Assembly (NCBI GenBank): GCA_965248695.1
Contig: CBDFKD010000002.1
Coordinates: 3,584,001-3,648,000 of the forward strand
Length of the DNA: 64,000 nt
Reading direction: 5' to 3'
Source of the DNA: Acidobacteriota bacterium
GTDB taxonomy: Bacteria; Acidobacteriota; UBA890; WLXD01
The position numbers and the translations under genes are program-made. The first letter of the stretch is position 1. The number at the start of each line of letters is the position of its first letter. The notes beneath the pieces are model-generated. The model ran no database searches. It saw only the letters and a list, made by a program, of their open reading frames with translations, and had not been told where the DNA came from. Shown one piece after another: positions 11,250 through 57,498 of the stretch.

Positions 11250-11325
11250 CTACGGGTCCGTCGGCACGAGCCGGTTTAGCTCGTCCAACCAGTTGAGCAC
11301 GCAAGTGGATCTGTGTGACCGGCCT
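11250..11325 (-). pseudogene. 3' tail of a Ser/Thr kinase-beta-propeller gene
   Basis: (PVTQIH)..VLNWLDELNRLVPTDP*, matches ITNWFEELERLVPTDP* ending at 53714. Confidence 0.8.
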
Positions 11326-11455
11326 TTGCATTGGCCGCGAGATTCATGAACTATGCCGGGGCGGCAAGTGCAGTCGAATACCAGTGGGACAGCGGTCGTG
11401 CCCACCGGCTCATCCTCGGTGCCGGATAGGTCCCCTTTTTCTTGGAGGACTCCAG

Positions 11456-12751
11456 ATGGTGCGTCGAATAGCTTTGGGCCTCGTCGCGATATGGCTCCAT
11501 GCGACTCCAGTGTCCAGCCAGGTTGTCGCGATCAAGGCAGGACAGGTAGTGAACACCGAGTCCGGCACGACCGCGACAAACCAAATCATTATCGTCGAGT
11601 CTGGTGTCGTTAAGGCGGTTGGCCCGGGTCTTCCGATCCCGGACGGTGCGGAGCTTGTGGACCTCTCGACCTCGACCGTCCTCCCGGGACTATTCGATGC
11701 CCATACGCACCTTTGCATGAACGTTCGTCCTGGACGCGACGCGGGCAATTACTACTTCACCACCCTGCAGGATTCCGATGCAGCGCGGGCACTCGATGGT
11801 GTAATAAACGGCCGGTCGATGCTCAACGCAGGCTTCACCACCGTTCGTGACATCGGCAATGAGGGGGCGTATGCGTGCACGGAGTTGCGCCGTGCCATTG
11901 AAACGGGGCGTCTTGTTGGTCCCACAATAATCAATGCCGGTCGGATCATCGCCCCGTTTGGGGGGCAGTTCAGCCTCCAGCCAGACAGGCCAAATCTCGG
12001 TGAGCCCGAGTATTTCTTCGCCGATACGCGGGACGAAATGGTCAAAGCCATCCGCGAAAACGTCCATTACGGCGCGATGGTGATCAAGATCGTGGTCGAT
12101 GATCAGGACTACATTTACTCGTCTGATGACATCAGGTTCATGAAAGAGGAGGCGGCTCGCGCCGGTCGGCGGTTGGCCGCACACGCCTGGACAGCCAAGG
12201 GCGCTCACAATGCGGCTGAAGCCGGGGTTGCCTCGATAGAGCATGTGTGGGCGATCGAGGATGCTGACCTCGAATTGGCAAAAGCAAATGGTGTCACTGC
12301 TGTCTTTACACCGTTCCCGAACGAAGAGTGGAGCGCCTGCTGCCGGCAGCACTACCCGGGATTCGTATTGGAGAGGCCCACGGCTGAGGAAATGGCTGGA
12401 GTGCATGCCCAGCAGATCGACCGCATCAGCAGTGCCCTGAGGATCGGGGTTCCGATGGTTTTCGGCTCCGATGCCGTCACTGAGCTACCCGGGCACACGC
12501 GTGGGACTCTGGCCATGAGCCGCATCGACATGTTTACGGAGGCAGGGATGACGCCCGCTCACCTACTCCGGTCCATGACGACAAGCGCCGCGGAACTATT
12601 GGGCGTGGCCGAAGTGCGCGGAACGATTGCTCCGGGAATGGCCGCGGACCTCATTGCGACACCGCGCAATCCCCTTGATGACATCCAGGAACTGAAGCGC
12701 GTGTTCTTTGTCATGAAAGACGGCGTGATCGTTCGTCAGGGTCCAGGCTAG
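11456..12751 (+). CDS. Secreted amidohydrolase_1 (Xaa-Pro dipeptidase-like)
   Basis: LPGLFDAHTH, GFTTVRD, AAHA, SIEH, FGSDA, GMAADLIA; GGAGG before ATG. Confidence 0.93.
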   Translation: MVRRIALGLVAIWLHATPVSSQVVAIKAGQVVNTESGTTATNQIIIVESGVVKAVGPGLPIPDGAELVDLSTSTVLPGLFDAHTHLCMNVRPGRDAGNYYFTTLQDSDAARALDGVINGRSMLNAGFTTVRDIGNEGAYACTELRRAIETGRLVGPTIINAGRIIAPFGGQFSLQPDRPNLGEPEYFFADTRDEMVKAIRENVHYGAMVIKIVVDDQDYIYSSDDIRFMKEEAARAGRRLAAHAWTAKGAHNAAEAGVASIEHVWAIEDADLELAKANGVTAVFTPFPNEEWSACCRQHYPGFVLERPTAEEMAGVHAQQIDRISSALRIGVPMVFGSDAVTELPGHTRGTLAMSRIDMFTEAGMTPAHLLRSMTTSAAELLGVAEVRGTIAPGMAADLIATPRNPLDDIQELKRVFFVMKDGVIVRQGPG

Positions 12752-12758
12752 GGGCAGG

Positions 12759-16846: not shown

Positions 16847-17913
16847 ATGCGCATCCGCGTGTCCGCACTCGTCATCTTGTTCAGTCTCTGTCTAGTGGCG
16901 ACCAACCCTGCGGAGCCAAGCGGGCCGCAATCGGAGACCGCCGAACCCCCCACCTGGTCGCTTGCAGCTACCGGCGACTCGATCATCACTCGGCCCGTTT
17001 CCATCTACGACGATGAGCGGTTGCTGGACCTCGTCGAGCTTGTCCGAGGCGCTGACATTGCGTTCACCAACGTCGAAACTACGATTCTTCGACTATGGGA
17101 CTTCAAGGGCTGGCCGGCGGCTGGCGCCTGGGAACAACGCGGCCCCCCGGAGATGGCCGATGAGCTCAAGTGGATGGGATTTGATCTGGCGAATTTCGCC
17201 AACAACCACACCGGCGACTTCGGTATCGAAGGCATGGTCGCGACGATGCGCAATCTCGAGCGTGCCGGGCTGGTGCACTCAGGAGCCGGCATGAATCTCG
17301 GCCGCGCGAGCGCGCCCGCCTACCTGGATACGAAGAAGGGTCGCGTTGCGCTGATCGGTCTGGCGAGCACGTTCGCGCGCCATGCCCGCGCCGCGCCGAC
17401 CCGTTTGGACTCTCGGGGCCGACCGGGGCTCAACCCGCTGCGAGTCAATCGGACCTATCAAGTAGATCCTGAGCGAATGGCAGATCTACGTCGGATCGGC
17501 GAGGAGCTTGGCAGTGCCGTGCCCGAGTCACCGGAGGAGCCTCTCCGGGTTGGGGGTACTACCTTCGTTCAGGGACCGGAAACGAAACTGATCGAGACGG
17601 TGAACTCCCAGGACGAGGAGCGGATCCTCCACGTGATTCGCAATGCGGCCAAGCAGGCCGATTTCGTCATCGTCAACAGCCACTCCCATGAAAGCGGCAA
17701 CACTAACGAGGAGCCGCCGACGTGGCTCATCGGGTTCATCAAGAAGTGTCTCGACGCGGGCGCGGTCACCTATATCGTCCACGGGCCGCACCGGCTCAGG
17801 GGTATCGAGATCTACAAGGGCAAGCCCATCTTCTACAGCTTGGCGGATTTCATTTTTCAGTATGAGACCGAGGAGCCGGTGTCTCAGGATACATACGAGG
17901 CGTTTGATGTCGT
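16847..17913 (+). pseudogene. CapA/PGA_cap-family metallophosphoesterase, 5' part
   Basis: ATGD, NVE, ANNH.GDFG, HSHE, HGPH, PIFYSL; cut by IS3 at 17914; 3' part at 49315-49646. Confidence 0.92.
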
Positions 17914-19173
17914 TGACCTGACCCCGCGGTTAGTACCATGTCTTATCTCAGTAACTCGGTGCTGACAAGAGGTTGTTGAGGCCGGCGAAGCGGAGCGCAG
18001 CCGGCTTCAACAACGTCGCTTCGGGTGCGGGCGGCCGATAGCTCAGCGAGCTGTGCGGTCGCATGCGGTTGTAGTGCTGACGCCATCTCTCGATCAGAAC
18101 CTTTGCCTCCTTGAGCGTGTAGAAGATCTCTCCATCCAGCAGCTCGTCGCGTAGCTTGCCGTTGAAGCTCTCCACGTAACCGTTCTCCCACGGCGAGCCC
18201 GGCTCGATGAACAGCGTCCCCACGCCCAACCGGCCCAGCCAGTCGCGAACCGCCTCGGCGGTGAACTCTGGTCCGTTATCCGACCGGATGTGCTCAGGTA
18301 TGCCCCGGTGTACGAACAACCTCCCGAGCTGCTCCAGCACGTCCTCAGAGTTGAGCTTCCGTGCTACATGGATCGCCAGGCTTTCTCGTGTGTACTCATC
18401 GACGATCGTCAGCAGCCTCATAGCCCGACCGTCGTGCGTCCGGTGGTGCAGGAAGTCATACGCCCAGACATGATCCCGGTGCTGTGGGCGCAGCCGGATG
18501 CAGGAGCCATCGCTCAGCCACAGCCGTGCTCGTTTGGGCTGTTTTCTCGGTACTTTCAGCCCTTCGCGCCGCCAGATACGCTGCACTCGTTTGTGGTTCA
18601 CGGACCAGCCCTCCATGCGCAGCAACGCTGTCACCCTCCGATATCCGTAGCGCCCGTACTGTCGGGCTAAATCCACGATCCGCTCCGTCAAAATCTGCTC
18701 CTGTTGCGGCTCTCTTGGCACGTACCGGTGTGTCGTGCGTGGTTGTTTCAGTACCCGACACGCCCGCCTCTCCGAGACGCCCAGCCGCCCCCGTACATGT
18801 GCCACCGCCTCTCGCCGCCGAGCTGGGCTCAGAAGTTTCCCTCCGCCACTTCCTTCAGGATCGACAGGTCGAGTTCCTTTTCCGCCACCAGCCTCTTGAG
18901 CCGGGCATTCTCCTTCTCCAGTTGCTTGAGCTTTCTGGCCTGGTTGAGCTTCAGTCCGCCGTACTCTCGCCGCCACCGGTAGTAGGTGTGCTCGGTGATT
19001 GCTAGCTTGCGGCAGGCATCCTTGACCGTCGCCCCTCGAGCCAGCTCCACCTCAGCCTCCCGGAGCTTGCGTACGATCTGCTCGGCGCTGTGCCTCTTAC
19101 TCGGCATTCTGACCTCCCGTTCTTGACCCAGATCGTGAGATTACATCCGGATCCGTTTTCGGGGGTCAGGTCA
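17914..19173 (-). mobile_element. IS3-family element type A, copy 2 (1260 bp, complete)
   Basis: TGACCTGACCCC termini; reverse complement of 49647-50906. Confidence 0.97.
17948..19107 (-). CDS. IS3 transposase OrfAB (programmed -1 frameshift)
   Basis: OrfA 18829-19107 plus OrfB with DDE motifs; GGGAAAC slippery site. Confidence 0.93.
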
Positions 19174-19710
19174 TTGTCGCGCTTCGCAGAACTCGATGTG
19201 ATCGCGAACTTCCAACCCATGTGGGCCCAGACCGATCCACACATGATTGATCTCACGATACCCAAATTGGGTCCGGAGCGAACAAGTTGGTTGTATCCAT
19301 TTCGCAGCATCGTCGCCTCTGGCGCCAGAATCGCCTTCGGCAGCGATTGGTCCGTCACATCGATGAATCCGCTCGACAACATTCAGGTAGCGGTTACTCG
19401 CTCCCGCTTTGCCTCCAACCTCAGGCCAGGGGATCCTCCGCCACCGGGGCTTGATGGTTCTGGGCCTAGTTGGATCCCTGGGAAACGCGTGGATCTAGAA
19501 ACCGCAATCGCCGCCTACACGCTCGACGTTGCCTACCTCAACTTTCAGGAGGACGAGGTCGGCTCGATCGAGGTCGGGAAATACGCAGACCTTGCAGTTC
19601 TCGATCGAAACGTTTTCGAGGTGCCACCCTCTGACATTCACAAAGCGAGAGTCCTGCTGACACTCCTGGAGGGCGAATCCGTCTACGAAGATCCGGCATG
19701 GACCTGGTAA
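19174..19710 (+). pseudogene. Amidohydrolase_3, 3' part
   Basis: RFAELDVIANFQP, FGSDW, GSIEVGKYADL; begins at the IS end with no start codon of its own. Confidence 0.9.
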
Positions 19711-19720: not shown

Positions 19721-19756
19721 GACGAGCTAAAGCGGTTCGTGCCGACGGACCCGTAG
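19721..19756 (+). pseudogene. 3' tail of a Ser/Thr kinase-beta-propeller gene
   Basis: DELKRFVPTDP*; DNA nearly identical to the tail at 11250-11285 (reverse complement). Confidence 0.75.
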
Positions 19757-19846: not shown

Positions 19847-19893
19847 ACCAGCCCGCAAGTTCAAGCCACGTCAAGGGATAGCAACAATCGTCA
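19847..19893 (+). repeat. 47-bp dispersed direct repeat, copy A (att-site-like)
   Basis: 44/47 identical to 42005-42051. Confidence 0.85.
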
Positions 19894-22659: not shown

Positions 22660-22694
22660 AAGTCAGGATCTCCCGTTGGAACGCGCGCCCGGTA

Positions 22695-22800
22695 GCGATA
22701 CGCTTTCCGCGCTCCCCCACCCGTCTTTGGTACCGCCATGGAACCCGGCACCAAACTAGGCTCCTGCGAGATCACGTTATTGGCCGGGCTCAGGCCGTGA
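22695..22800 (+). pseudogene. 5' stub of a Ser/Thr kinase gene with its upstream region
   Basis: ATG 22738 MEPGTKLGSCEIT; upstream DNA aligns with 51854-51893 (rc); stop overlaps patatin start (GTGA). Confidence 0.7.
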
Positions 22801-25031
22801 CCGCAAGGGGTTTCCGCCGCGCGCTCCGACGGGGCCTCTACCTTGTGCAGTACCTGTACTTCCAGCGCTTTCCACTCGCGTTCCTGTTGCTGCTGTGGAC
22901 CATCTCGATTGGCGCGTTGCGGGGCAACTCCGTGCTGTCTGGCTGTCTCGAGACGGTCTCGCCGCGGGCGACGAGCTTTCTCGCCGCCACGGCGCTGTTC
23001 CTGTCGTGGCTGATCGTCTCGGCGTTCTTCCTGACATGGCGGCACGGCGAGGCGCGCTTCGGTGTCCGCTTGCTCTGGCACCCGTTCGCCGGAGCGGCCG
23101 GGCGCTTGCGATTGCTGCCGGCCGCGTTCGTGGCGGCCTTGCCGCTATGGGCGATCTTTGCAAGCCGCCATCACGAGCTGACTGCGACCGTCGCCGGCCT
23201 CGCCATTGCCGCGGCCGTCATTGTGGTTTTTGGCACTTTGTCGTTCCTCGACGAGCTGCTCAGTCTGACGAGGTCCCCGGCACGGCGCATCGCGAAACAC
23301 CTCCGACTCCCTCGGCCAATCGAGTGGGTCACCGCAACCACCGGGTGGTTAGCGCGGTTCCTTGGCCCTGGGTACTGGGAACCAGGCAGCCCCGGCCGGA
23401 TCGCCGAGGGTCAGGCCCGTGCGGTCGTCGGATTCGTTGCCCTGGCTGTTCTCTACATCTCGGTGTACCTCGTCTGGCAGGCGGGCCCGCCGGTCGAGGG
23501 CGAGCCCGCGGGCGCCTTCCTGCTGCTGTTCCTGTCGCTCCTGCTGTCTGGCCTTGCCGGGGCCGCGTTTCTGCTCGACCGCTATCGCGTCCCGGTTCTC
23601 CTGAGCAGCCTCGCAGTGCTCATCCTGCTGTATGGCGCCAACGGCGCCGATCACTACTTCGAGGTCGAGGTCATTCCCCCGGACGAGCGGCTCGAGCCGG
23701 TGAGTATCCCGACCGCAGTGAGGGCGCGCCTGCGCGCGACGGCTGAGGGTCGCGCCGAGAGCGCACGCCCAGTCCTGGTCGTGGCCACGGTCAGCGGTGG
23801 TGGGATCCAGGCGACGGCCTGGGCCGGGCGCGTGCTGACCAGTCTCGAGGAGGCGACCGCTGCCGACGCGATTCTGGCAGAGCGAGGGATCCTTTTCCTG
23901 GAGTCGCTGCAGCTGATCAGCTCCGTTTCAGGTGGCAGCGTCGGCGCGCTGGAGTTGCTCGCTGCGATGCAGCAGCACGGCCCCTCGGGTCCATGGGCAA
24001 CCGAGGAGCTGGCGCGAATCCGTCGAGCCACGAAGCAGTCCAGCCTGGCGGCCCTAGGATGGGCCATCGTGTACCCGGAGTTCTTGCGCGTTCTCCTGCC
24101 GGGGTACGACTCGCGCAAGGACCGCGGCTGGGCGCTCGAGCGCGCCTGGTCGCGCACACTCCGACAGGTACTCGGCGTCGACCGACACCTCTATCGCGCC
24201 AACTGGGCCCGCGAGGTTAACGCTGGACGGCTACCGGGAATGGTCTTCAATTCCACCATTGTAGAGACCGGCTCGCCGTTGTTTCTCACCCCGCTGGCCA
24301 CCGACGACATGGCTGATGGATACCCCGACTTCGGCATTCGACAGCTTCTCGTGGACCCCGACGCGGAAACGTCTGGGTTCCTCGACATCGACATGGTGCA
24401 AGCGGCGCGGCTGTCGTCGAGCTTCCCCTATCTCGGCCCACCGGCCGCTCCTCGCTGCGTCGCCGGCCCGTGCCCGGCCTTCGGCGCGTATCACGTAGTG
24501 GACGGTGGGTATTTCGACAACTACGGGATCACGGCGGCGGTCGCCTGGCTTCAGGAGCTGCGCGCGGCCGTCGACTTCGACATAGGCCACGCCTTCGGAG
24601 CGGTGGCGATTGTCGAGATCAAGGCGTTACCCGAGCCGGTTCCGCGCGCCCCGATACCGACGCGGTGGACCGGAATCTACACCGAGCTTCTCGGCCCCGC
24701 GATCGCCATGGTGAACATGCGCCGCACCTCACAGACGGTTCGCGACGACATCGAGGTGAAAAGCCTGTGCGCGATCCTCGAGCAGGGCGGCGAACGCGAC
24801 GCCGTGCCCTGTGAGCAGTTCGTGTTCCAGCCGCCGCCCGACGTCCGGCCACCGGTATCGTGGCATCTGCGCGCCGAGGACGCGGCGGCAATCGACAGTT
24901 CGTGGGAGCGGATCGCGCAACCCGCCTCCGATGACGCCGAGTCGAGTCTCGCTCGGTTGCTCGCCTACATGCGTGCCCACTCGGCTCCGCTGCCGCCGGG
25001 AGCCGCGACCGACCAGCCGGCAGGAAGGTAG
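22797..25031 (+). CDS. Membrane-anchored patatin-like phospholipase
   Basis: Multi-TM N-terminus; SGGG, SVSGGS, VDGGYFDN. Confidence 0.9.
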   Translation: MTARGFRRALRRGLYLVQYLYFQRFPLAFLLLLWTISIGALRGNSVLSGCLETVSPRATSFLAATALFLSWLIVSAFFLTWRHGEARFGVRLLWHPFAGAAGRLRLLPAAFVAALPLWAIFASRHHELTATVAGLAIAAAVIVVFGTLSFLDELLSLTRSPARRIAKHLRLPRPIEWVTATTGWLARFLGPGYWEPGSPGRIAEGQARAVVGFVALAVLYISVYLVWQAGPPVEGEPAGAFLLLFLSLLLSGLAGAAFLLDRYRVPVLLSSLAVLILLYGANGADHYFEVEVIPPDERLEPVSIPTAVRARLRATAEGRAESARPVLVVATVSGGGIQATAWAGRVLTSLEEATAADAILAERGILFLESLQLISSVSGGSVGALELLAAMQQHGPSGPWATEELARIRRATKQSSLAALGWAIVYPEFLRVLLPGYDSRKDRGWALERAWSRTLRQVLGVDRHLYRANWAREVNAGRLPGMVFNSTIVETGSPLFLTPLATDDMADGYPDFGIRQLLVDPDAETSGFLDIDMVQAARLSSSFPYLGPPAAPRCVAGPCPAFGAYHVVDGGYFDNYGITAAVAWLQELRAAVDFDIGHAFGAVAIVEIKALPEPVPRAPIPTRWTGIYTELLGPAIAMVNMRRTSQTVRDDIEVKSLCAILEQGGERDAVPCEQFVFQPPPDVRPPVSWHLRAEDAAAIDSSWERIAQPASDDAESSLARLLAYMRAHSAPLPPGAATDQPAGR

Positions 25032-25041: not shown

Positions 25042-25089
25042 ATGGAGCCCGGTACCCGACTGGCGGCGGATTCGATTCTGGGCGTTTGA
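25042..25089 (+). pseudogene. 5' stub of a Ser/Thr kinase gene
   Basis: MEPGTRLAADSILGV*, parallels the stub at 22738; short. Confidence 0.55.
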
Positions 25090-45812: not shown

Positions 45813-46751
45813 ATGAGGATCGTCATCTACGGCGCGACCGGGTATGGCGGTCAGGAACTGCTGCGCTACCTGGCAGGACACCCGCGGTTCGAGGTCGCGG
45901 CCGTTGTGAGCAGGAGCAACACCGGTCGGTCGATCGGGGAAACGCTGCCGCAGCTCGACGGCTTCTATGGCGACCTCCGGTTCCAATCCCCGGACGAGCA
46001 GCTGCCGAGGGACGTAGACGGCGCATTTCTCGCCGTTCCGCACGGCACCGCCGCGGATCTCGTTGCTGGCCTCCCGGATAGGTTGCGCATCGTGGACCTC
46101 TCGATGGATTTCCGGAGCGAGCAAGATGGCTTCGTTTACGGTCTTACGGAAACGACCCGCGAGCAGATTCGAGGTGCGTGCCGCGTCGCCAACCCGGGCT
46201 GCTTCGCAACCGGTGCGCTGCTCGCATTGGCACCGTTGTATGGTCGCGGCACGCTCGCTGGCGACGTCGTCCTCGCACAAACGACCGGATCCTCAGGCTC
46301 CGGCGCACGCGAGAAACCGACGACTCATCACCCCGAGCGGGCTCAGGACATGCGCGCCTATAAGGTGCTCGCTCACCAGCATCTTGCCGAGATGGAAGCG
46401 CAGATCGGTGGCGGCTGCACGCTCTCGATGATCCCGCAGAGCGGCCCTTTCTCACGCGGCATCTTCACTGTCGCTCACGTACGAACGGATCTCGATATCG
46501 TCGAGCTCTATAGAGAACATTACAAGGCCGAGCCCTTCGTGCGGATGCGCGACGACACGCCGGCCCTGCGGCACGTAGTGCGCACGAACTTCTGCGACCT
46601 CACCGTGCACGTCAAGGACGGCCGCGCGGTAATCCTGTCGGCGATTGACAACCTCGGAAAGGGTATGGCGGGGCAAGCGATACAGAACATGAACCTCCTT
46701 TTTGGCCTGGAGGAAACGGAGGGGCTCCTGCTCCCGGGGACGAACCCGTGA
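45813..46751 (+). CDS. argC: N-acetyl-gamma-glutamyl-phosphate reductase
   Basis: GATGYGG, VANPGCF, GSSGSG, IDNLGKGMAGQAIQNMN. Confidence 0.93.
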   Translation: MRIVIYGATGYGGQELLRYLAGHPRFEVAAVVSRSNTGRSIGETLPQLDGFYGDLRFQSPDEQLPRDVDGAFLAVPHGTAADLVAGLPDRLRIVDLSMDFRSEQDGFVYGLTETTREQIRGACRVANPGCFATGALLALAPLYGRGTLAGDVVLAQTTGSSGSGAREKPTTHHPERAQDMRAYKVLAHQHLAEMEAQIGGGCTLSMIPQSGPFSRGIFTVAHVRTDLDIVELYREHYKAEPFVRMRDDTPALRHVVRTNFCDLTVHVKDGRAVILSAIDNLGKGMAGQAIQNMNLLFGLEETEGLLLPGTNP

Positions 46752-47890: not shown

Positions 47891-48816
47891 ACGATAACGA
47901 CATATTCGTCCTCCTGCAGGCGCTGCCCTACATCCGGCAGCACAAGGGTGCGACCTTCGTATTGAAGTGCGGTGGGGAAATCGCCCGCAACGCCGAAGCG
48001 ATCGAGCATTTCGCCACAGACGTCGCGCTTTGCGCTCATGTCGGCATCCGGATGGTCGTCGTTCACGGCGGTGGGCCCCAGGCAACCGAACTCTCCCAGA
48101 AACTCGGCCACGAGCCCACGATCATCGCTGGCCGCCGCGTAACGGACGACGCCACACTCGAGATCGTCAAGATGGTCTTCGCCGGTCAGATCAACATCGA
48201 TATTCTAGGCGCGCTGCGGCGGCACGGCGTTCAGCCGGTTGGAGTAAGCGGTGTGGACGGAGATCTCATACATGCCGTACGCCGGCCCAAGACCGAGATG
48301 CACGACCCTGAGACCGGCCAGCGGAAGATCGTGGACTTCGGCCACGTCGGCGACATAACCAGCGTAAACACACGCCTCTTGGTCAGCCTTCTCGACGGAG
48401 GCTATGTACCGGTTCTCGCCTCGCTCGGCAGCGACGACCACGGCGCCATCTTCAATATCAATGCCGACACCGTCGCCGCGCGGATCGCCGTCGACATGGC
48501 GGTGGACAAGCTCATCGTTCTCACGAGCGCACCAGGCCTACTCACCGACCCCGATGACCCGAGCAGCCTCGTATCGCACATCAGCGCATCCCGCTGTGAT
48601 GAGATGCTCCGCTCCGGCGCCGTGCACGGCGGTATGGTGCCCAAGGTGGAAACGCTGGTCGCGGCCGTCCGCGGCGGTATAGCCCGTGCGCACATCCTCG
48701 ACGGCACGAGCCCCCACAGCCTACTCGTCGAGCTGTTCACCCAGCGTGGAACCGGAACGATGGTGACAACACAAGAGGAAGAGTTGCACTACATGGAGGA
48801 ACGCCCCGACCCTTAA
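47887..48816 (+). CDS. argB: Acetylglutamate kinase
   Basis: QALPYI, KCGG, VHGGGP, GRRVTD, NINAD, GGMVPK. Confidence 0.95.
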   Translation: MNDNDIFVLLQALPYIRQHKGATFVLKCGGEIARNAEAIEHFATDVALCAHVGIRMVVVHGGGPQATELSQKLGHEPTIIAGRRVTDDATLEIVKMVFAGQINIDILGALRRHGVQPVGVSGVDGDLIHAVRRPKTEMHDPETGQRKIVDFGHVGDITSVNTRLLVSLLDGGYVPVLASLGSDDHGAIFNINADTVAARIAVDMAVDKLIVLTSAPGLLTDPDDPSSLVSHISASRCDEMLRSGAVHGGMVPKVETLVAAVRGGIARAHILDGTSPHSLLVELFTQRGTGTMVTTQEEELHYMEERPDP

Positions 48817-49019
48817 CGGTTGGATTCCAGGTCTGCCAGAACCGGGCAGACCTCCGAGTCGCCCTCGCGGAGATGGTCGTCACACTTGCCGATGCTCGCG
48901 CTTAGATCACGCTCCACCGCGCGGAGCAAACGGAGCTTCCGGCGAACTGTCCGGCGTTTGGTAGTGAGACGGTCTCAAACGGTCGCCCAACTGTCGGAGG
49001 GATGGTCTCGCAATTCGAT

Positions 49020-49270
49020 GAGCCCACCGATCTCTGCCAGCGGATCTCGCCAAGCTTCTTGAGCCGTCGGGACAGAGTCGTATGGTCGGGAATAGGGATC
49101 TCCACGTCCAGCATGTCTGCGAGAGCACGCAGGAAGCCCTCGGTCTGCCGGGGCGGAAGGTGGAAGACCATGCGGATCGTGAGAGCTGCCTCGATTGCCA
49201 TGTCCGCGTAGGTGTTGGCCGCCGGGTTTCCCGCTCGGTGGAGCCCGCCAGGAGTCGCGGGCATCGGCGG
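49020..49270 (-). mobile_element. IS5-family (IS903 group) remnant
   Basis: WRAPPSGKPGG..YADMAIEAALTIRMVFHL..PDHTTLSRR; about 100 bp shared with 45510-45610. Confidence 0.85.
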
Positions 49271-49314
49271 ACCGGTGCATAAAAGCGTCGTGCACTTCGA
49301 ACAACGAGACCGAA

Positions 49315-49646
49315 CTATGGCTGCCAGACTCCGATCCCGTCCTCAAAGACGAAATTCGTACCAAAGGGTGCCGACAGGCGCACGACGAGATCGATGATCT
49401 CCTTTGCTAATTCGCCCTGCGCGAGACGCGGCGTGCCTCGCGTAGTTCTTCCGTCGCCATGCCAGAGAGCGTCCTTGTGGCCCATTTCGATTGGATGGAG
49501 CTTGAGCTCTACCATCCGGTGCCCCTTGAACACGGGGATCGCGACCACGCTCTCGAACCACACCGCGTTCTCCGGCAGCATGGCGTACTCGCCCTTCTGC
49601 CCCTCGGGGTCGTAGACAGCGCTGGCCAGAGCGTCGGGGTCGACGA
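49315..49646 (-). pseudogene. CapA-family gene, 3' part
   Basis: Joins 16847-17913 in frame across TCGT: FDVV|DPDALAS...WFESVVA...RGTPRLA. Confidence 0.9.
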
Positions 49647-50906
49647 TGACCTGACCCCCGAAAACGGATCCGGATGTAATCTCACGATCTGGGTCAAGAA
49701 CGGGAGGTCAGAATGCCGAGTAAGAGGCACAGCGCCGAGCAGATCGTACGCAAGCTCCGGGAGGCTGAGGTGGAGCTGGCTCGAGGGGCGACGGTCAAGG
49801 ATGCCTGCCGCAAGCTAGCAATCACCGAGCACACCTACTACCGGTGGCGGCGAGAGTACGGCGGACTGAAGCTCAACCAGGCCAGAAAGCTCAAGCAACT
49901 GGAGAAGGAGAATGCCCGGCTCAAGAGGCTGGTGGCGGAAAAGGAACTCGACCTGTCGATCCTGAAGGAAGTGGCGGAGGGAAACTTCTGAGCCCAGCTC
50001 GGCGGCGAGAGGCGGTGGCACATGTACGGGGGCGGCTGGGCGTCTCGGAGAGGCGGGCGTGTCGGGTACTGAAACAACCACGCACGACACACCGGTACGT
50101 GCCAAGAGAGCCGCAACAGGAGCAGATTTTGACGGAGCGGATCGTGGATTTAGCCCGACAGTACGGGCGCTACGGATATCGGAGGGTGACAGCGTTGCTG
50201 CGCATGGAGGGCTGGTCCGTGAACCACAAACGAGTGCAGCGTATCTGGCGGCGCGAAGGGCTGAAAGTACCGAGAAAACAGCCCAAACGAGCACGGCTGT
50301 GGCTGAGCGATGGCTCCTGCATCCGGCTGCGCCCACAGCACCGGGATCATGTCTGGGCGTATGACTTCCTGCACCACCGGACGCACGACGGTCGGGCTAT
50401 GAGGCTGCTGACGATCGTCGATGAGTACACACGAGAAAGCCTGGCGATCCATGTAGCACGGAAGCTCAACTCTGAGGACGTGCTGGAGCAGCTCGGGAGG
50501 TTGTTCGTACACCGGGGCATACCTGAGCACATCCGGTCGGATAACGGACCAGAGTTCACCGCCGAGGCGGTTCGCGACTGGCTGGGCCGGTTGGGCGTGG
50601 GGACGCTGTTCATCGAGCCGGGCTCGCCGTGGGAGAACGGTTACGTGGAGAGCTTCAACGGCAAGCTACGCGACGAGCTGCTGGATGGAGAGATCTTCTA
50701 CACGCTCAAGGAGGCAAAGGTTCTGATCGAGAGATGGCGTCAGCACTACAACCGCATGCGACCGCACAGCTCGCTGAGCTATCGGCCGCCCGCACCCGAA
50801 GCGACGTTGTTGAAGCCGGCTGCGCTCCGCTTCGCCGGCCTCAACAACCTCTTGTCAGCACCGAGTTACTGAGATAAGACATGGTACTAACCGCGGGGTC
50901 AGGTCA
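49647..50906 (+). mobile_element. IS3-family element type A, copy 3 (1260 bp, complete)
   Basis: Both IRs present; inverted relative to copy 2. Confidence 0.97.
49713..50872 (+). CDS. IS3 transposase OrfAB (programmed -1 frameshift)
   Basis: OrfA 49713-49991; GGGAAAC at 49979-49985; DDE OrfB. Confidence 0.93.
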
Positions 50907-51757
50907 ACCACGCGAGCTGTTAGCTCTCCTTGATCATCGAGGGCGACGTACGCTTCTAAGCTCTCGCGACTAGCGCTGGCATCTTGGAACATCGTGATGC
51001 CGAAGCGGTTCGCTAGCTGCAAGGCACGCCGGAGGCCTTCAACGCGCTCGACATGGCCGGCGTCATCCGGTAGATGCTCTTCGACAAGTCGGGCGGCCCA
51101 CTCGCGCAACATACCGGTGGGCTCACCGGTGGTGGGATCGCGCTCGATACGTCCGTTGAGTGGGTCGGGCGTGTCCTTGTCGATTCCCGCGATCTGCAAA
51201 GCCCGCGAACTGACCCATGCCTGGTGTCCGTAGTTGGGTGTGAGATAGACAGGCCTCCCAGGGGCAATCTCATCGAGTAATGACTTGTGGGGATTACCGT
51301 CTGGAAACAGCCACAAAAACCAACCACCGCCGACGATCCAGTCGTCCGCATCACCCTGCGCAGCACAGTTTCGTACTTCTTCTAGTACTTCCTCCTGAGA
51401 GTAGAGACCGTTCAGATTGCATCGGGCAAGAGCGGCGCCACCGTAGACTGGATGGACGTGGGAATCGCCGAAGCCCGGAAGCACCATCTTGCCATCGAGG
51501 TCCACAACGCGAGTCCCTGGCGCGGTCCAGCGATCCACATCCTCGTCCGACCCGACTTCGACGATGCGGCCGTCGCTTACGGCAACGGCCTGTGCCCAAG
51601 GCTGCGCCGCGTCTACCGTGTAAACGGCGCCGTTTCGTAACACGAGCTCGGCCACACCTCCGTTCTCGACGGCACCACAGGCTACACAAGTCCAGGCCCC
51701 AATCGCGAGGGAGAGAATCCGATACTGCTTCGGCAGATACCGGGCACGACCTGACAT
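50907..51757 (-). pseudogene. Amidohydrolase_3 lipoprotein, 5' part
   Basis: CVAC lipobox; LPGFGDSHVH; GEPTGMLRE; ends GELTARVV at the IS. Confidence 0.9.
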
Positions 51758-51778
51758 GGTTGGCTCCCTGGACTTGAT

Positions 51779-51893
51779 TCAATGTTGGGATGGTTGATGG
51801 CGGCCAGCATCTGGGCTTCCCGCTCCAGGCGGGCCAGACGTTCCGGGTTCCATGGCGCTATCAGAGGGGGGGTAAGCGCCTGAAGCCTATCGC
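51779..51893 (-). pseudogene. 5' stub of a Ser/Thr kinase gene with internal deletion
   Basis: ATG 51853 MEPGT fused to PERLARLEREAQMLAAINHPNI (alpha-C helix/HPNI) in another frame. Confidence 0.8.
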
Positions 51894-51970
51894 CAGAGGT
51901 CGAGACGGTCCACGGGAGTTGTCAGGCCAGCCCTGGTCGCGGCCTGGTTAAACGGTCTCACCGAAGACAG

Positions 51971-52528
51971 CTATCCGGCGCCGTCTTGGGTTTTGGCGGC
52001 AACCGCCGCCGGTGTCCTCGGGCAATACGCGTCGACCGAGTCCTCTGATGATCGCGCGAACTGAATGCCCGCATCCCCTATTGGCAGTCGACTTCGGCAG
52101 CCCCTGATCCTGGCGATGATCTCGGTCGTGGAAATCTCGGGTGTGTAACCCACCGAGCGGTAAATGCCCATCGCGATCGGAGTCTTGTAGCAGAACTCTT
52201 CCATCTCGCTGGAGATGTCATCTCCGTGCAGGACCAGGTCAATATTGAGCTGTTCGATCCAGCCACGGTCGATCGTGAGTGGTGCGTCGGGTACTACTTC
52301 ATCAACGTAGCGACAGCTCTCGACCAAAGCCACACGCTCCTCCATGGAAAATATCGGGCGGCGCTTGTAACTCATCACCGTTTCATCGGCGTGAACACCC
52401 ACCAAAAGGTAGTCACCGTGTGTTCTGGTCTGTCTGAGGAAATTCACGTGGCCAACATGGAACAGATCGGCCACCACATCGACGTACACACGTATGGGTT
52501 TGTGTTCTCCTGGCTTGGGTCCATGCAT
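51971..52528 (-). CDS. Choline/ethanolamine-phosphate cytidylyltransferase-like protein
   Basis: ADLFHVGH, YKRRP, CRYVDEV, HGDD, ISTT. Confidence 0.9.
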   Translation of the reverse strand: MHGPKPGEHKPIRVYVDVVADLFHVGHVNFLRQTRTHGDYLLVGVHADETVMSYKRRPIFSMEERVALVESCRYVDEVVPDAPLTIDRGWIEQLNIDLVLHGDDISSEMEEFCYKTPIAMGIYRSVGYTPEISTTEIIARIRGCRSRLPIGDAGIQFARSSEDSVDAYCPRTPAAVAAKTQDGAG

Positions 52529-53458: not shown

Positions 53459-54097
53459 AGCGAATCAGTTCACCCTTAAGCAGAGGCGGGGGCCAAGAGC
53501 ACGGCTTCGTAGACCCACTTCCCGCGGAGCGACAGTTGGCGTCTTTGGCAGCGCACCCGATCATTTGGATTCTACGGCCTTGGCGCAACTAGCATCGCAC
53601 CAGAGTAGGCGGTCGCGGTACGCTGCGAGCGGTCGAACGAGCAACATGGCTTAGTCGATCTCCGCCCCGGAAGGCGGACGCGTCTCGACGTGGCCGCACC
53701 GCCGACGAGCGCGCTACGGATCCGTGGGCACGAGCCGCTCCAGCTCCTCGAACCAGTTGGTAATCAGCGTAACGTCGCCTCCTCCTCCCTGGCTCTCGCC
53801 CGTGCGTGGGAACATCACGAAGCGCTGACCGTCGCTCGTTACGTCGTAGTCCGCGTAGTCATCTCGGCCAACGAAGATCCCGGCGAGCCCACCCAAGAAA
53901 GGGCCCTCGAAGAGTTGCTCCGCGCGTCCGTAGCTGAAGTCGTCCTCATCGGTCTCGACCGCGACCACCATGATTCCCGTATCGGTCCGGTAGAACAGCT
54001 CTCGACCGTCGGCTGACCATCTGGGCTGGCTTCCGCCGTTGCTGGAGACCTGCCACTTGCGAGATCCTGGCGGGTAGGGGCGGACGTAGACTTCACT

Positions 54098-55501
54098 GAG
54101 ATATAACCGGAAGTTGTGGATGGGAGGAAAAAGAAAGGCGGCGTAACCTTCGCTGGGATCATCAACAACCAGCAGCCGGCTGTGGAGGCCGGGAAGGAGA
54201 CGCCACCCGTGCTCAAGATTATCGGTGGATCGGACGCGGAGGAAGGACAGCTGACACTGGACGTCGATGAGCTCGCCCGGCAGGGCGCGCTGCAGATGCT
54301 GGCAACAGCACTGGAGTGGGAGGTTCAGGAGTATATCCAGAGCCACGCCGGGCAACTGGATGAAGCCGGCCGTCGGCAAGTGGTACGCAACGGTCGGGCT
54401 CGCGCACGCAAGATCACGTTGGGGTGCGGGACGGTGCAAGTAGCCGCGCCACGGGTCAACGACAAGCGGCTCGACGAGCAGGGACTGAGGCAGCGGTTCA
54501 GCAGTCGGATCCTGCCGCCCTACATGCGGCGCTCGCCGAAGGTGGCGGAGGTGCTGCCGGTGCTGTACCTGCGGGGCCTGTCGACGGGCGACTTCAAGGA
54601 GGCGCTGCCGATCTTACTGGGACAGGAAGCCAGCGGGCTGTCGGCATCGGCGATCTGCCGGCTGACGAACGCCTGGAGCACGGAGTACGAGGCATTCCGG
54701 AAGCTGGATCTGTCCACCAAGCAGTACGTATACGTGTGGGCGGACGGTGTGCACTTCAACATTCGACTCGAGGATGATCGGCTGTGCACGCTGGTGATCC
54801 TGGGCGTTTTGCCGGACGGAACCAAGGAGCTCATCGCGGTCGAGGACGGGTATCGAGAGAGCACCGAGAGCTGGGCGTTCGTGCTCCGGGAGCTGAAGCG
54901 TCGAGGCATGCGGGCGCCGCTCGTGGCAGTGGGTGATGGGGCGCTGGGGTTCTGGGCGGCGGTGCGGGATGTATGGCCCCAGACTCGAGAGCAACGATGC
55001 TGGGTGCATCGGCTTGGCAACGTGCTCGACAAGCTACCGAGGCGGCTGCAGGCCAAAGCCAAGCGCGCGCTGCACGAGATCATCGGTGCGCCAACGCGCG
55101 AGGATGCTCAGGAGGGCATGGCGCGGTTCGCAGCCGACTACGGCGCCAAGTACTCCAAGGCCGTGGCGTCGTTGCAACGCGACTCCGACAAGCTGCTGAC
55201 GTTCTACGACTTCCCCGCCGACCACTGGGTTCATCTGCGCACGGCCAACCCGATCGAGTCGGCGTTCGCCACCGTACGCCTGAGACAACGCGTCACCAAG
55301 GGCGCCGGCTCACGCACCAAGGCGCTGACGATGGCATTCAAGCTCCTGGAGATGGCACAGCAACGATGGCGCCGCATCAACGCTCCTCACCTCACTGCCC
55401 TCGTACTCGAGGGCGCCACATTCGTCGATGGAGTTCACCTGATCGCTAGCGAAGACGCCGCCTGAACAAATCCACCGATCCACAACATTTGCAAATAACT
55501 C
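54098..55501 (+). mobile_element. IS256-family element (different from 4004-5366)
   Basis: IRs GAG.TAT...GTTGTGGAT; 9-bp target duplication GACTTCACT at 54089-54097 and 55502-55510. Confidence 0.95.
54209..55465 (+). CDS. IS256-family transposase
   Basis: VVRNG, YLRGLSTGDF, VWADG, VGDG, QRCWVH, RTANPIES; AAGGAG before GTG. Confidence 0.95.
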   Translation: MLKIIGGSDAEEGQLTLDVDELARQGALQMLATALEWEVQEYIQSHAGQLDEAGRRQVVRNGRARARKITLGCGTVQVAAPRVNDKRLDEQGLRQRFSSRILPPYMRRSPKVAEVLPVLYLRGLSTGDFKEALPILLGQEASGLSASAICRLTNAWSTEYEAFRKLDLSTKQYVYVWADGVHFNIRLEDDRLCTLVILGVLPDGTKELIAVEDGYRESTESWAFVLRELKRRGMRAPLVAVGDGALGFWAAVRDVWPQTREQRCWVHRLGNVLDKLPRRLQAKAKRALHEIIGAPTREDAQEGMARFAADYGAKYSKAVASLQRDSDKLLTFYDFPADHWVHLRTANPIESAFATVRLRQRVTKGAGSRTKALTMAFKLLEMAQQRWRRINAPHLTALVLEGATFVDGVHLIASEDAA

Positions 55502-55597: not shown

Positions 55598-55660
55598 GTG
55601 AACGGCGTCGGCTCGGGACCTCGTGCCGACAAGCTGAGGATGTCGCACTTTTTGGCGCAC
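55598..55660 (+). other. Degenerate kinase 3' tail followed by an arm-like direct repeat
   Basis: ...GAC CTC GTG CCG ACA AGC TGA (DLVPTS*) then TGTCGCAC-TTTT-TGGCGCAC. Confidence 0.4.
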
Positions 55661-55890: not shown

Positions 55891-55931
55891 ATGACCCTTC
55901 AGGACTGGGGAGCCGTGAGCCAGATTGTCGG
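55891..55931 (+). pseudogene. Start of a small membrane-protein gene truncated by IS3-B
   Basis: GGAGA RBS then MTLQDWGAVSQIV up to the IS end. Confidence 0.55.
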
Positions 55932-57202
55932 TGACCTGCCCCCCAATAATCGGGCCAGTCTGAGAGTTAGGATTTGAGGCTCTCAGGATGGCTCGGGAAG
56001 GGGGAAGAATGGCGCGGAAGCGGTACACTGTAGAGTAGATCATCGCCAAGCTCAGGGAGGCAGAGATCGAGCTAGCGAAAGGGGCCAAGACACCGGAGGC
56101 ATGCCGCAAGCTGGGAATCAGCGAGAACACGTATTACCGGTGGCGCAAGGAGTACGGTGGACTGAGGGTGGATCAGGCACGGCGACTCAAGGAGCTGGAG
56201 CGGGAAAACGGCCGGCTCAAGAAGTTGCTGGCGGAGACGATGCTCGACAACGCCATCCTCAAAGAGGTTTCGTCGGGAAACTTCTGAGCCCGGCACGACG
56301 GAGCCGGGCAGTGCACCACGCACAGCAGTCGTTGGGTGTGTCCGAGAGGCGAGCCTGCAGAGTACTGGGCCAGGTGCGCTCGACGCAGCAGTATCGGCCC
56401 AAGGTGCCGCAGGAGGAGAAGGCACTGGTGGAGCGGATGACCCAGCTGGCGACGCAGTACGGGCGCTATGGGTACCGGCGGATCACGGCGCTGTTGGTAC
56501 GTGAGGGGTGGCGAGTGAATCACAAGAGGGTCGAACGGTTATGGCGTCGTGAGGGGCTGAAGGTACCGAAAAAGCAGCCCAAGCGCGGACGCTGGTGGCG
56601 CAATGATGGATCGTGCGTGCGGCTGCGGCCGGAGAGGAAAGATCACGTCTGGGCCTATGACTTCGTGCACGAACGAACTCACGACGGGCGAGCGTTTCGT
56701 CTACTGACGATCGTGGATGAGTACACGAGAGAGTGCTTGGCAATCGATGTAGCACGCAGGCTCAACTCCGAGAACGTGCTGGAGCGACTCGCTGAGCTGT
56801 TCGTGAACCGGGGTGTTGCCGATCACATCCGCTCCGACAACGGACCGGAGTTCACTTCTCGGGCAGTGCGTGAATGGCTCGAGCGAATCGGTGTGAAGAC
56901 GCTGTTCATTGAGCCCGGATCGCCATGGGAAAACGGCTATGTGGAGAGCTTCAACGGCAAGCTCCGAGACGAGCTGCTGAACGGCGAGATCTTCTACACG
57001 CTCAAGGAGGCGCAGTGCTTGGTGCACCGCTGGCGCCGCCAGTACAACCAGGTGCGGCCCCATAGCTCGTTGGGCTATCGACCGCCTGCACCCGAAGCGA
57101 CGTTGTTGCAGCCGGCTACGCTCCGCTTCGCCAGCTCCAACAATCTCTTGCCAGTACCGATTCTATGAGTTACGAAGTGGCCCAAACACTTGGGGCAGGT
57201 CA
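55932..57202 (+). mobile_element. IS3-family element type B, copy 2 (1271 bp), nonsense mutation in orfA
   Basis: Near-identical to 1848-3119; TAG at 56036-56038 where copy 1 has CAG. Confidence 0.95.
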
Positions 57203-57322
57203 CGCCTGCACCCGAAGCGACGTTGTTGCAGCCGGCTACGCTCCGCTTCGCCAGCTCCAACAATCTCTTGCCAGTACCGATTCTATGAGTTACGAAGTGG
57301 CGCAAACACTTGGGGCAGGTCA
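57203..57322 (+). repeat. Second copy of the last 120 bp of IS3-B including IRR
   Basis: Tandem repeat of 57083-57202 with one mismatch (57182 C vs 57302 G). Confidence 0.95.
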
Positions 57323-57498
57323 GCCTGGGCCTCGCGCTCGAAGCGGCGCAATACCAGGGCCGCCTTTTCAGGGCTTTTCTTGTCCACCGCGTCGTCACGA
57401 ATCAGCTTGATCGCCGCGGGCCGTGCCAGTAGGTTGTGCTCGCCGAGCCAGACCTCACCCATGCCGCCCTGACCGATTCTGCGCTTGAGCACGTACCT
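57323..57498 (-). pseudogene. Ser/Thr kinase N-lobe fragment
   Basis: YVLKRRIGQGGMGEVW...AAIKLI...RRFEREAQA. Confidence 0.9.

Follow-up and report, generated by a model that had tools for sequence, protein, structure and literature searches.

Bacteria have a deletional bias by which non-functional genes are removed by deletions, while short remnants persist beside needed elements. In integrons, unrelated genes stand behind a shared promoter-like element. In the functional pseudogenes of Anaplasma msp2 (PMC2789410), truncated members keep 5' and 3' ends usable as recombination homology, and recombination with cassette exchange through such conserved gene ends is documented. One large paralog group of an IS-rich acidobacterial genome consists of Ser/Thr kinases (Challacombe et al. 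2011, PMC3174227); the passages of that paper considered here mention neither kinase remnants nor a leader or trailer, and "pseudogene" occurs 0 times in its text. We analyzed a window of 64,000 nucleotides of acidobacterial DNA, for which the original prediction had listed eight shards of Ser/Thr kinase genes whose conserved ends would capture foreign genes in an integron-like manner. Our results indicate that the shards probably reflect birth-and-death decay of a multigene family, by ordinary deletion and with IS debris. Promoter reuse by some remnants is possible, while integron-like capture was not demonstrated.

Comparison of true 5' and 3' ends identified a Ser/Thr-kinase/PD40 family of ~900 aa as the parent of seven of the eight shards (Table 1). 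The nearest full-length relatives, P0001 and P0005, both begin with MEPGT and end with ...NWFDELKRLVPTDP and ...VPVDP, respectively. Furthermore, the pattern ATGGARCCCGGNACNNNNCT occurred twice in the window against 0.05 expected, a count reached in 0 of 100 shuffles. The 3' tail pattern had three matches (11250, 19733, and 53714) against 0.00 expected. As predicted, the window harbors no intact kinase gene: Pkinase was absent from its 49 ORFs, and a family HMM built on 81 full-length members gave fragments only, with no match anywhere in the window to positions 71-782. The eighth shard, a supposed degenerate tail at 55598, had no HMM match and no pattern within 3 mismatches; only an LVPT with a nearby stop codon is tail-like there. 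Among the other scans of the window, Rfam (gathering threshold) and tRNA searches gave no match, and tblastn with the window's own proteins ruled out that 42051-44956 is a decayed permease copy.

Table 1. Kinase fragments, adjoining genes, and IS-A copies in the window.
Feature	Position	Strand	Content and evidence
Tail a	11250..11327	-	Orphan kinase C-terminus ...LNWLDELNRLVPTDP*; family HMM match 11259-11327 (positions 885-907)
IS-A copy 1, IS3-family	17914..19173	-	rve and HTH_21 domains; inverted repeat partner of copy 2
Amidohydrolase C-terminal part	19180..19710	+	Amidohydro_3 positions 320-472; 97.3% identity to L061 10583-9987
Tail b	19721..19756	+	Last 11 kinase codons, DELKRFVPTDP*; pattern match at 19733
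Stub 1	22663..22776	+	Leader 22663-22737 and kinase codons 1-13; nhmmer match 22663-22775, model positions 16-128, E 6.5e-21
Patatin-like ORF	22779..25031 (listed from GTG 22797)	+	Pfam Patatin match short of the curated cut-off (E 6.5e-5)
Stub 2	25042..25089	+	ATG 25042; kinase codons 1 to about 13-14, MEPGTRLAADSIL; pattern match
IS-A copy 2, IS3-family	49647..50906	+	rve and HTH_21 domains
Amidohydrolase N-terminal part	50912..51757	-	Amidohydro_3 positions 1-206; 98.1% identity to L061 10966-11717
Stub 3	51778..51928	-	Leader 51928-51854, MEPG 51853-51842, kinase codons 47-70; nhmmer match 51928-51839, E 2e-16; family HMM match 51778-51849 (positions 47-70), E 1.2e-7
Tail f	53714..54199	-	PD40 3' remnant, residues about 736-902; tblastn E 4e-51, HMM E 1.5e-56; family HMM match 53723-54097 (positions 783-907)
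Claimed degenerate tail	55598..55640	+	Not supported
N-lobe piece, different kinase subfamily	57325..57498	-	Family HMM match 57325-57498 (positions 8-59), E 4.6e-8

An nhmmer model of the 5' element revealed that a leader of ~80 nt upstream of the kinase is conserved throughout the MEPGT subfamily. Its matches at stubs 1 and 3 bear out the prediction that two stubs share upstream DNA. In the alignment of relatives, the leader has a sharp left edge, the position of which is shared by dozens of copies, and a trailer of ~100 nt after the tail is common to about 13 copies. The leader is a putative promoter that may now drive adjoining genes. A consensus sigma-70 promoter was dropped as an explanation, since 0 sites with -35/-10 hexamers were found at 22500-22900 and 51700-52000; TTGGAT/GTGGAC and TAGGCT, 18 nt apart, could represent a weaker promoter. 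A structured RNA was also rejected: the consensus fold of 43 leaders had an energy of -2.7 kcal/mol, with 5 predicted pairs and no covariation-supported structure. Remnant leaders are about as near the consensus as the leaders of full genes (0.795 versus 0.815, p=0.27), and 42 orphan tails in relatives encode ELxR[LF]VPTDP exactly; both observations would be explained by recent loss as well as by a function that persists, with remnant detection biased toward well-kept copies.

Stub 1 reads from ATG 22738 into MEPGTKLGSCEIT, and its frame ends with a TGA (22798-22800) that overlaps GTG 22797. The nearest homolog of the adjoining patatin-like ORF is P0121 (924 aa; 54% identity, residues 194-915 versus query residues 2-731). 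According to tblastn, this homology starts at residue 188, at nt 22779, and abuts stub 1 in another reading frame. Since it begins exactly at the stub 1 junction, the ORF is probably N-terminally truncated and lacks about 187 codons. Stub 2, which is without a leader, begins 10 nt past the stop codon of the patatin-like ORF, and 76 nt separate its end from the ATG (25166) of hmgA, which is complete (Pfam HgmA_N and HgmA_C). A Pfam search of 137 intergenic frames detected no further kinase/PD40 remnants beside the stubs and only two IS5-like fragments, and a search of representative genome contigs with the patatin-like protein found no relatives holding the stub 1 or stub 2 locus. We infer that stubs 1 and 2 are deletion products of a former kinase-patatin-kinase-hmgA arrangement.

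Stub 3 starts at ATG 51853 with MEPG and continues with ERLARLEREAQMLAAINHPNI, out of frame, down to 51779 (minus strand). The deletion that breaks the frame lies between two AACCCGG repeats (7-nt microhomology). Only about 20 nt, including a ribosome-binding site, separate the stub from the amidohydrolase ATG at 51757; as predicted, a co-oriented gene comes next after each of the three stubs in the window. Here, the N-terminal part of the amidohydrolase is interrupted by IS-A copy 2 and about 380 nt of its middle are absent relative to L061, where Amidohydro_3 profile positions 1-472 are contiguous. The gene is IS-disrupted in both genomes carrying it. The junctions stub, 20-nt linker, amidohydrolase, 10-nt spacer, and tail are the same in L061 and the window, down to the start of tail b 10 nt past the amidohydrolase stop codon. 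The L061 stub retains kinase codons ~38-46, which are gone in the window; it has lost codons 1-37, of which the first four (MEPG) survive in the window. Thus, one stub was eroded independently in two genomes. Both outer flanks of the stub-amidohydrolase-tail unit differ between the window and L061, and one of the breaks falls directly behind the tail stop codon. The window, L061, and related regions are rearranged at many other points as well.

The window contains five rve (IS3-type) ORFs, two IS256-like ORFs, and two IS5-like fragments. IS-A has the rve transposase, terminal inverted repeats (TGACCTGACC...), short target duplication, and empty site of the IS3 family. The arms of the IS-A inverted repeat (1271 nt) were reported as 100% complementary, yet two flanking positions differ. 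At the empty site in L030, window position 49646 is joined straight to the reverse complement of 17914, without the IS, at GTCGACGACATCAAAC, and the 4-bp duplication ACGA is swapped across the inversion. We conclude that recombination between IS-A copies 1 and 2 inverted 19180-49640, and that one IS3 insertion and this inversion split the amidohydrolase that lay between stub 3 and tail b (19721). The two copies, the ACGA swap, and the empty site in a relative are as in IS3 insertion followed by inversion between inverted copies, a process which accounts only for how the amidohydrolase was split and stub 3 came to lie apart from tail b, but not for the origin of the stubs.

Tail a faces away from an amidohydrolase gene at 11453-12751. 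It shares 93% identity over 41 nt with tail b and is also present in L031 (95.4% identity). Tail f is truncated by an IS256-like element (Transposase_mut ORF 54116-55465). The N-lobe piece is located inside ORF 57283-57756 and is cut at 57322 by the duplicated end of IS-B; the relative R07 has kinase positions 8-275 with 93.9% identity to this region.

A DNA scan of three related acidobacterial MAGs (CAXWPH01, CBDBHB01, and CBDAMQ01), giving a sample of 888 kb of relatives plus the window, revealed that the pattern of a leader or stub followed by an unrelated gene, and sometimes by a tail, recurs many times in them. About ten leader-to-tail arrangements enclose non-kinase DNA. Literature searches found no earlier description of the stub/cargo/tail pattern. 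Among 71 leader copies, 46 retain ≤92 kinase codons; when only the 70 copies without a locus-end cut are counted, 46 retain ≤92 codons, 6 retain 194-341, and 1 retains 792. Similarly, 44 of the 67 VPTDP tails are orphans. One copy consists of the leader and codons 3-49 joined straight to tail positions 865-900. We discarded the idea of a breakpoint hotspot at codon 13, since stubs in the relatives end at scattered points between the interior of the leader and codon 92. Three B-stubs ending at codon 32 have the same downstream DNA and therefore are copies of a single event, and a repeated unit of a B-stub, a 236-aa gene, and a tail is always present together with an upstream A kinase or leader. 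Synteny between these genomes breaks every 1-3 kb.

A deletion between genomes was detected by comparing the orthologous R30 and R14: 5.4 kb are missing from R30, comprising an 808-aa gene, a leader, and kinase codons 1-774, and a kinase 3' remnant was left behind. Longer or intact versions at the same locus in a relative are available for stub 3 (L061), R30 (R14), and the N-lobe piece (R07). In the relatives we also found in-frame fusions between stubs and sulfatases, in which the kinase start codon is joined in frame to a signal peptide. They have one common distal junction, with a 21-nt in-frame difference, and were inherited and duplicated, which makes donation of a promoter or start codon a fair structural reading.

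The genes next to remnants are diverse. Their codon usage is native (median score 0.236 versus 0.219 for all genes), which contradicts the predicted foreign origin of the cargo. At 31 of 44 remnants, the adjoining gene is co-oriented with the remnant, which is not above the baseline of 366 of 591 adjacent genes (62%; p=0.16). At 24 of the 44 remnants, the same-strand gene starts ≤150 nt away. In the window, the patatin-like ORF appears 5'-truncated and the amidohydrolase is IS-disrupted.

According to the decay model, the family is built of repeating units in which the ~80-nt leader precedes one or two Ser/Thr-kinase/PD40 genes of ~900 aa and the conserved trailer follows; such units are often arranged in tandem or share operons with enzyme genes. 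Kinase bodies would have been lost by contiguous deletions (one of them at the 7-nt microhomology), IS insertions, and IS-mediated inversion. Repeated neutral deletions would then trim the ends until something needed, a promoter or a neighboring gene, is reached, and the outcome would be short 5' stubs and 3' tails tight against intact neighbors. An excess of end fragments is expected under decay, because any contiguous deletion leaves gene termini only; therefore, the refutation test of the original prediction, according to which plain decay samples the gene uniformly, was based on a wrong null. We observed the fragments and their family, IS insertion and inversion, deletion between genomes, independent stub erosion, and native codon usage. 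As in pseudogene erosion, there are deletions, remnants by needed elements, and microhomology at a junction; however, the scale, with remnants making up about two thirds of the leader and tail copies, is unusual for a free-living bacterium with a large genome, and the remnants bear a conserved leader and trailer. Several points speak against decay. With 46 of 70 copies at ≤92 codons, the remnants fall far below the lengths predicted for uniform breakpoints, so that repeated erosion has to be assumed; the orphan tails and remnant leaders are well conserved; no relative with the stub 1 or stub 2 locus was found; and the differing outer flanks of the stub-amidohydrolase-tail unit are also expected from exchange via kinase-derived ends.

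Such exchange is the core of an alternative which, in both of its parts taken together, we consider unlikely: 120-230 nt of leader and stub on one side and 60-200 nt of tail and trailer on the other would serve as portable homology, by which a cassette replaces a kinase unit through double crossover, and the leader would give the cargo its promoter and start codon. The 71 leaders and 67 tails would offer many landing pads, and the leader-to-tail arrangements with non-kinase DNA inside, the flank differences of the amidohydrolase unit with one break just past the tail stop, the persistence and duplication of the in-frame stub-sulfatase fusions, and the co-oriented gene starts within 150 nt are in agreement with it. 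However, gene orientation is at baseline and codon usage is native, the B-stub/236-aa/tail unit is accompanied each time by an upstream A kinase or leader, as expected from plain segmental duplication, and synteny breaks at its short intervals regardless. Moreover, the window's own cargo is truncated or IS-hit, and no exchange event was caught. A more far-reaching form, which we regard as improbable, holds that leader with first codons and tail with trailer constitute a reusable expression-and-homology module, in which remnants would be retained for driving unrelated, mostly secreted catabolic enzyme genes, and homologous recombination between the many near-identical ends would carry units from one to another of dozens of kinase loci, as a recombinase-free analogue of gene cassettes. 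As in msp2, truncated members keep conserved ends that could act as recombination homology; in msp2, however, the cassette is a variable part of the same gene, while here the insert is an unrelated gene. The outcome resembles that of integrons in that unrelated genes lie behind a shared promoter-like element. Unlike in integrons, we found no integrase, no recombination sites at the junctions, and no cassette boundaries, and the stub breakpoints are scattered. The 49 ORFs and 137 intergenic frames had no Pfam match to a tyrosine recombinase, the "integrase core" matches in the window are only rve domains of IS3 transposases, and the stub junctions share no site by sequence. Of the predicted capture via kinase ends, the recurrent layout, the true ends, and the leader hold, but no dedicated machinery was found, and deletions both make and erode remnants.

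It is very unlikely that leader and trailer bound a mobile element, possibly a non-autonomous one, with stubs and tails as its internally deleted copies comparable to MITEs. The sharp left edge of the leader, the trailer, and the direct fusion of codons 3-49 to the tail would fit such an element, but sharp edges can simply mark the end of functional constraint, no transposase accompanies the unit, inspection of the leader and trailer alignments by eye showed neither terminal inverted repeats nor target duplications, and the stub breakpoints do not coincide. Chimeric assembly at repeated kinase sequence is hardly credible: the relatives are MAGs in which many full-length kinases fall into 2-4 HMM pieces, suggesting indel errors, but the same junctions are present in independent assemblies (window versus L061, L031, and L030).

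The extent of decay is unusual, with about two thirds of the sampled copies reduced to ends and with recurring leader and trailer. If decay is the whole story, the finding has descriptive value as a clear case of birth and death in a bacterial signaling family, and it warns against taking an excess of gene-end fragments as evidence for a capture mechanism. Should the remnant leaders be active as promoters, losing a sensor kinase would rewire the expression of neighboring enzymes, and the family would provide a testable model for the reuse of regulatory DNA from dead genes.

Of the 1,620 longer relatives of the 241-aa frame at 53714-54439, which holds a 3' kinase piece (tail), 120 were listed; kinase and/or PD40 Pfam domains are present in nearly all of these, and Vicinamibacteria appears among their source names. 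A family profile built from the 81 listed relatives of 880 to 930 aa was run on 2,256 six-frame segments of the window. Only four sites matched with E below 1 (see the table), while the remaining 17 rows among the matches listed had E of 2 or more. The shortest 5' pieces (stubs) were too small for HMM detection and were judged by pattern tests. In the window, ATGGARCCCGGNACNNNNCT was found only at 22738 and 25042 (0.05 expected), and the tail pattern only at 11250, 19733, and 53714 (0.00 expected). Thus, seven of the eight shards of the original prediction are genuine pieces of the kinase family; the degenerate tail at 55598 failed both the profile and the pattern test. The stubs do match real kinase 5' ends, since the two closest relatives, P0001 and P0005, both start with MEPGT.LGHYEI (termini of 45 of the 81 members were inspected); their C termini are NWFDELKRLVPTDP and VPVDP, respectively. 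In line with the predicted lack of an intact kinase, Pfam detected a Pkinase domain in none of the 49 selected window ORFs. The tail at 53714-54199 adjoins an IS256-like element. The N-lobe piece, which comes from a separate kinase subfamily, is cut at 57322 by the insertion sequence IS-B; region R07 of a relative holds kinase positions 8-275 and is 93.9% identical to it.

Features of the window and of tail-bearing loci in relatives (L numbers)
Feature	Coordinates	Strand	Details
Profile match	11259-11327	-	positions 885-907
Profile match	51778-51849	-	positions 47-70
Profile match	53723-54097	-	positions 783-907
Profile match	57325-57498	-	positions 8-59 (N-lobe piece)
Leader copies	22663-22737; 51928-51854		69 further copies in L001-L063
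rve/HTH_21 (IS3-type) transposases	1111-1893; 1904-3085; 17948-18976; 49844-50872; 56101-57168		Pfam
Mutator-type (IS256-like) transposases	4071-5276; 54116-55465		Pfam
IS-A (IS3 element), copies 1 and 2	17909-19179; 49641-50911		1271-nt inverted arms; repeat finding
IS-A, third copy, partial	914-1847		interrupted by IS-B
IS-B (second IS3 type)	1847-3119; 55931-57202		repeat finding
IS-B right end, tandem duplicate	57083-57202; 57203-57322		120 nt, 99% identical
Amidohydrolase, broken	~3120-3950		cut by IS-B
FAD oxidoreductase fragment, inverted pair	5444-5800; 34715-35066		73-84% identical
Sulfatases, inverted paralogous segments	9425-10836; 38638-40049		79% complementary DNA arms; ~74% protein (tblastn)
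arg genes	45717-48816		semialdehyde dehydrogenase, class-III aminotransferase, amino-acid kinase
IS5-like DDE fragments	45290-45652; 48905-49342		Pfam, intergenic frames
Direct repeat in DDE fragments	45502-45610; 49090-49198		109 nt, 96% identical
ORFs without Pfam match, good coding scores	42176-44956; 36719-38461; 57791-59659	-	926, 580, and 622 aa
Repeat 3' of two amidohydrolase genes	19847-19893; 42005-42051		47 nt, 94% identical
tRNA-like T-arm fragments	~42065-42100; L061 ~13075-13040		adjoining second 47-nt repeat copy; upstream of L061 stub
Short junction repeat	L001 ~1687-1720; L023 9594-9650; L043 ~7214-7263		L023 copy in R30; L043 copy = R12 52082-52131
Kinase-sulfatase fusions	L020:7441-9963; L005:15470-18009; L002 ~5146-7280		
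Trailer examples	L058 10034-10160; L013 10034-10160		

The window has a G+C content of ~62% and abounds in insertion sequences. Its arg genes are bordered on both sides by IS5-like fragments (two in all), a layout that resembles a composite transposon. The inverted sulfatase and FAD oxidoreductase segments are an old segmental duplication within the region. At neither T-arm fragment (window, L061) was a tRNA called by ARAGORN.

Scanning genome contigs with the peptide-level tail pattern, ELxR[LF]VPTDP plus stop codon, yielded 63 loci, which merge to 38 regions (888 kb), almost all from three long-contig Acidobacteriota MAGs. The MEPGT-type kinases of relatives (type A) have a common upstream leader of ~80 nt (..CCGTGGACCCTCG..GCGATAGGCTTCAGGCGCTCACCCACC..AGCGCCATG), and a second kinase type (MIGKT...) often begins at the stop codon of the type A gene. 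The 5' element, modeled with nhmmer, gave 105 matches, 71 of which include the leader (69 from relatives and 2 from the window); the upstream DNA shared by two stubs, as predicted, is this family leader. Behind the 71 leaders we found a full kinase in 17 cases, 141 to 792 codons in 8, and 92 codons or fewer in 46, although these copies include orthologs and paralogs and are not independent events. No hidden kinase continuation was found behind the 46 short remnants, 14 of which are cut within the leader. Of the 67 tail-pattern matches, a count biased upward because regions were selected for holding a tail, full kinases account for 15, partial kinases for 8, and orphan tails of ~10 to 68 codons for 44.

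The stub ends are scattered, with no breakpoint hotspot: those detected by HMM lie at codons 22 to 92, and with the nhmmer-defined remnants the cuts start inside the leader. Three stubs ending at codon 32 have the same downstream DNA and are therefore copies of one event. Direct evidence for deletion is provided by regions R14 and R30, which are collinear with 90-96% identity. R30 lacks 5.4 kb that in R14 comprise an 808-aa gene, the leader, and kinase codons 1-774, and it retains codons 775-907, preceded by a 57-nt filler. A short repeat (...CCCACCACACTTTCA(A/C)C...) lies at three rearrangement junctions, one copy being this filler, and could have been left by a small mobile element.

In the window, stub 3 (minus strand) reads leader, ATG, and MEPG, followed by out-of-frame ERLARLEREAQMLAAINHPNI, and is separated from the amidohydrolase ATG (51757) by ~20 nt containing GGGAG. 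This amidohydrolase ends at IS-A copy 2; a C-terminal part runs from 19180, beside IS-A copy 1, to 19710, and 10 nt after it stands a tail (DELKRFVPTDP plus stop). In L030, which lacks the IS, window position 49646 is followed at once by 17914 in reverse complement (site GTCGACGACATCAAAC), with ACGA as the duplicated target. We conclude that IS-A inserted and that its two copies then inverted 19180-49640. With the inversion undone, the order on one strand is stub 3, amidohydrolase, tail, permease, stub 1, patatin-like gene, stub 2, hmgA, and fahA.

Both junctions of this unit, kinase/linker/amidohydrolase and amidohydrolase/10 nt/tail, recur in locus L061 (CBDAMQ01 contig) at 92-98% identity. 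Since Amidohydro_3 profile positions 1-472 are contiguous in L061, both window pieces belong to one gene, which in the window lacks ~380 nt of its middle compared with L061. L061 retains kinase codons ~38-46 (KPALAEDLATNPERLARL...) without ATG, MEPG, or leader, whereas the window stub retains leader and MEPG and has lost codons 5-46. Thus, one older stub was eroded independently in two lineages. The loss in the window is bounded by two AACCCGG repeats (ATGGAACCCGG... and ...CCAACCCGGAACG) and is a classic microhomology deletion. The L061 amidohydrolase is also interrupted, by a ~990-nt IS3 remnant, so that this flagship cargo (a gene adjoining a kinase remnant) is broken in both. Beyond the tail, L061 runs into a homolog of window 33172-33638, while the window runs into the permease. 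Blocks of 0.5 to 3 kb in the window share 93-99% identity with three different MAGs but have other neighborhoods there; between close relatives, rearrangement of these regions occurs on about the scale of single genes.

At an E value of no more than 0.001, 3,235 relatives of the patatin-like ORF were detected. Residues 194-915 of P0121 (924 aa, 54% identity), the closest among those listed, align to query 2-731, and by tblastn the match reaches P0121 residue 188 at nt 22779. This point lies 18 nt before the listed GTG start and adjoins kinase codon 13 of stub 1 in a different reading frame. The truncation would be the expected leftover of one deletion reaching from kinase codon 13 into the neighboring gene, yet long and short forms are both present among the best 150 of the 3,235 relatives, and the 5' truncation is therefore only inferred. 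Stub 2 lacks a leader and starts 10 nt past the patatin stop codon, an arrangement like that of operon-internal kinases of relatives; hmgA is complete according to Pfam. The former order was probably kinase-patatin-kinase-hmgA, followed by two deletions. Relatives carrying the stub 1 or stub 2 loci were not found in the genome contigs searched.

Of the 44 short remnants found in relatives, 31 have a co-oriented gene as the next called one, at a distance of at most 150 nt in 24 cases; the co-orientation baseline for adjacent genes in those regions is 366/591 (62%; one-sided binomial p 0.16). Pfam matched 17 of 28 same-strand neighbors within 800 nt and left 11 without a match. The matches were copper amine oxidase, M24 and M50 peptidases, PIN domain, a PD40 protein, four sulfatases, GSDH, two DAO oxidoreductases, PQQ dehydrogenase, cytochrome c, Rieske oxygenase, ectoine synthase, and methyltransferase. 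The idea that cargo genes are foreign did not hold, since the median codon-usage score of neighbors of 600 nt or more (0.236; n=22, two window genes included) was like that of all genes (0.219; n=495). In several copies from two MAGs, the kinase start codon plus 20 to 28 codons form in-frame fusions with the lipoprotein signal peptide of sulfatases of 790 to 840 aa. In L020, the kinase start is in frame with a sulfatase lipoprotein signal peptide (MEPGTKLGHYEILAALGAGG joined to RSSVRLGRCYSLAALLLAILITASC); L005 and L002 have the same distal junction and seven additional kinase codons, indicating that the fusion was inherited, duplicated, and trimmed.

The leader is a candidate operator/promoter. 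It contains no consensus sigma-70 match and, among 43 leaders, no conserved RNA fold (-2.7 kcal/mol). It may carry a weak -35/-10 pair (TTGGAT or GTGGAC, 18 nt, TAGGCT), a reading that fits the absence of cuts upstream of model position ~58 among detected remnants, although shorter ones would escape detection. Boxes of the form CC(G/A)TGGA(A)CC lie at its left edge and at the ATG, with a third ~45 nt further upstream in some copies. Remnant leaders match the consensus as well as leaders of full genes do (0.795, n=45, versus 0.815, n=17; p=0.27), a result expected from recent loss and from continued use alike. A trailer of ~100 nt 3' of the kinase stop codon (CGCGCTCAGCCGAGTCTCGCGAGCC...GCAGACACCAGTCATATGTCTGC), with a palindrome (CTCGCGAG) and a 7-bp hairpin, is common to ~13 tails and is found on full kinases and orphan tails alike.

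Expansion of kinase paralogs is known in Solibacter (PMC3174227), and the parts of the literature that our search returned contain no description of such remnants. Integrases or other dedicated machinery were absent from the 49 ORFs and intergenic frames of the window (Pfam). Homology-anchored exchange or promoter reuse has a low probability; it is kept alive by the shortness, number, and good preservation of the remnants and by the differing flanks of the amidohydrolase unit in the window and L061, which decay does not by itself explain. Uniform sampling of the kinase gene, proposed as the mark of plain decay, is the wrong null, because a single contiguous deletion can leave terminal pieces only. 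Repeated neutral deletions would then shorten these ends until a needed promoter or gene is reached. This deletion model explains why terminal pieces predominate, why junctions are tight, why cargo is out of frame and truncated, why IS hits occur, and why trimming differs between lineages.
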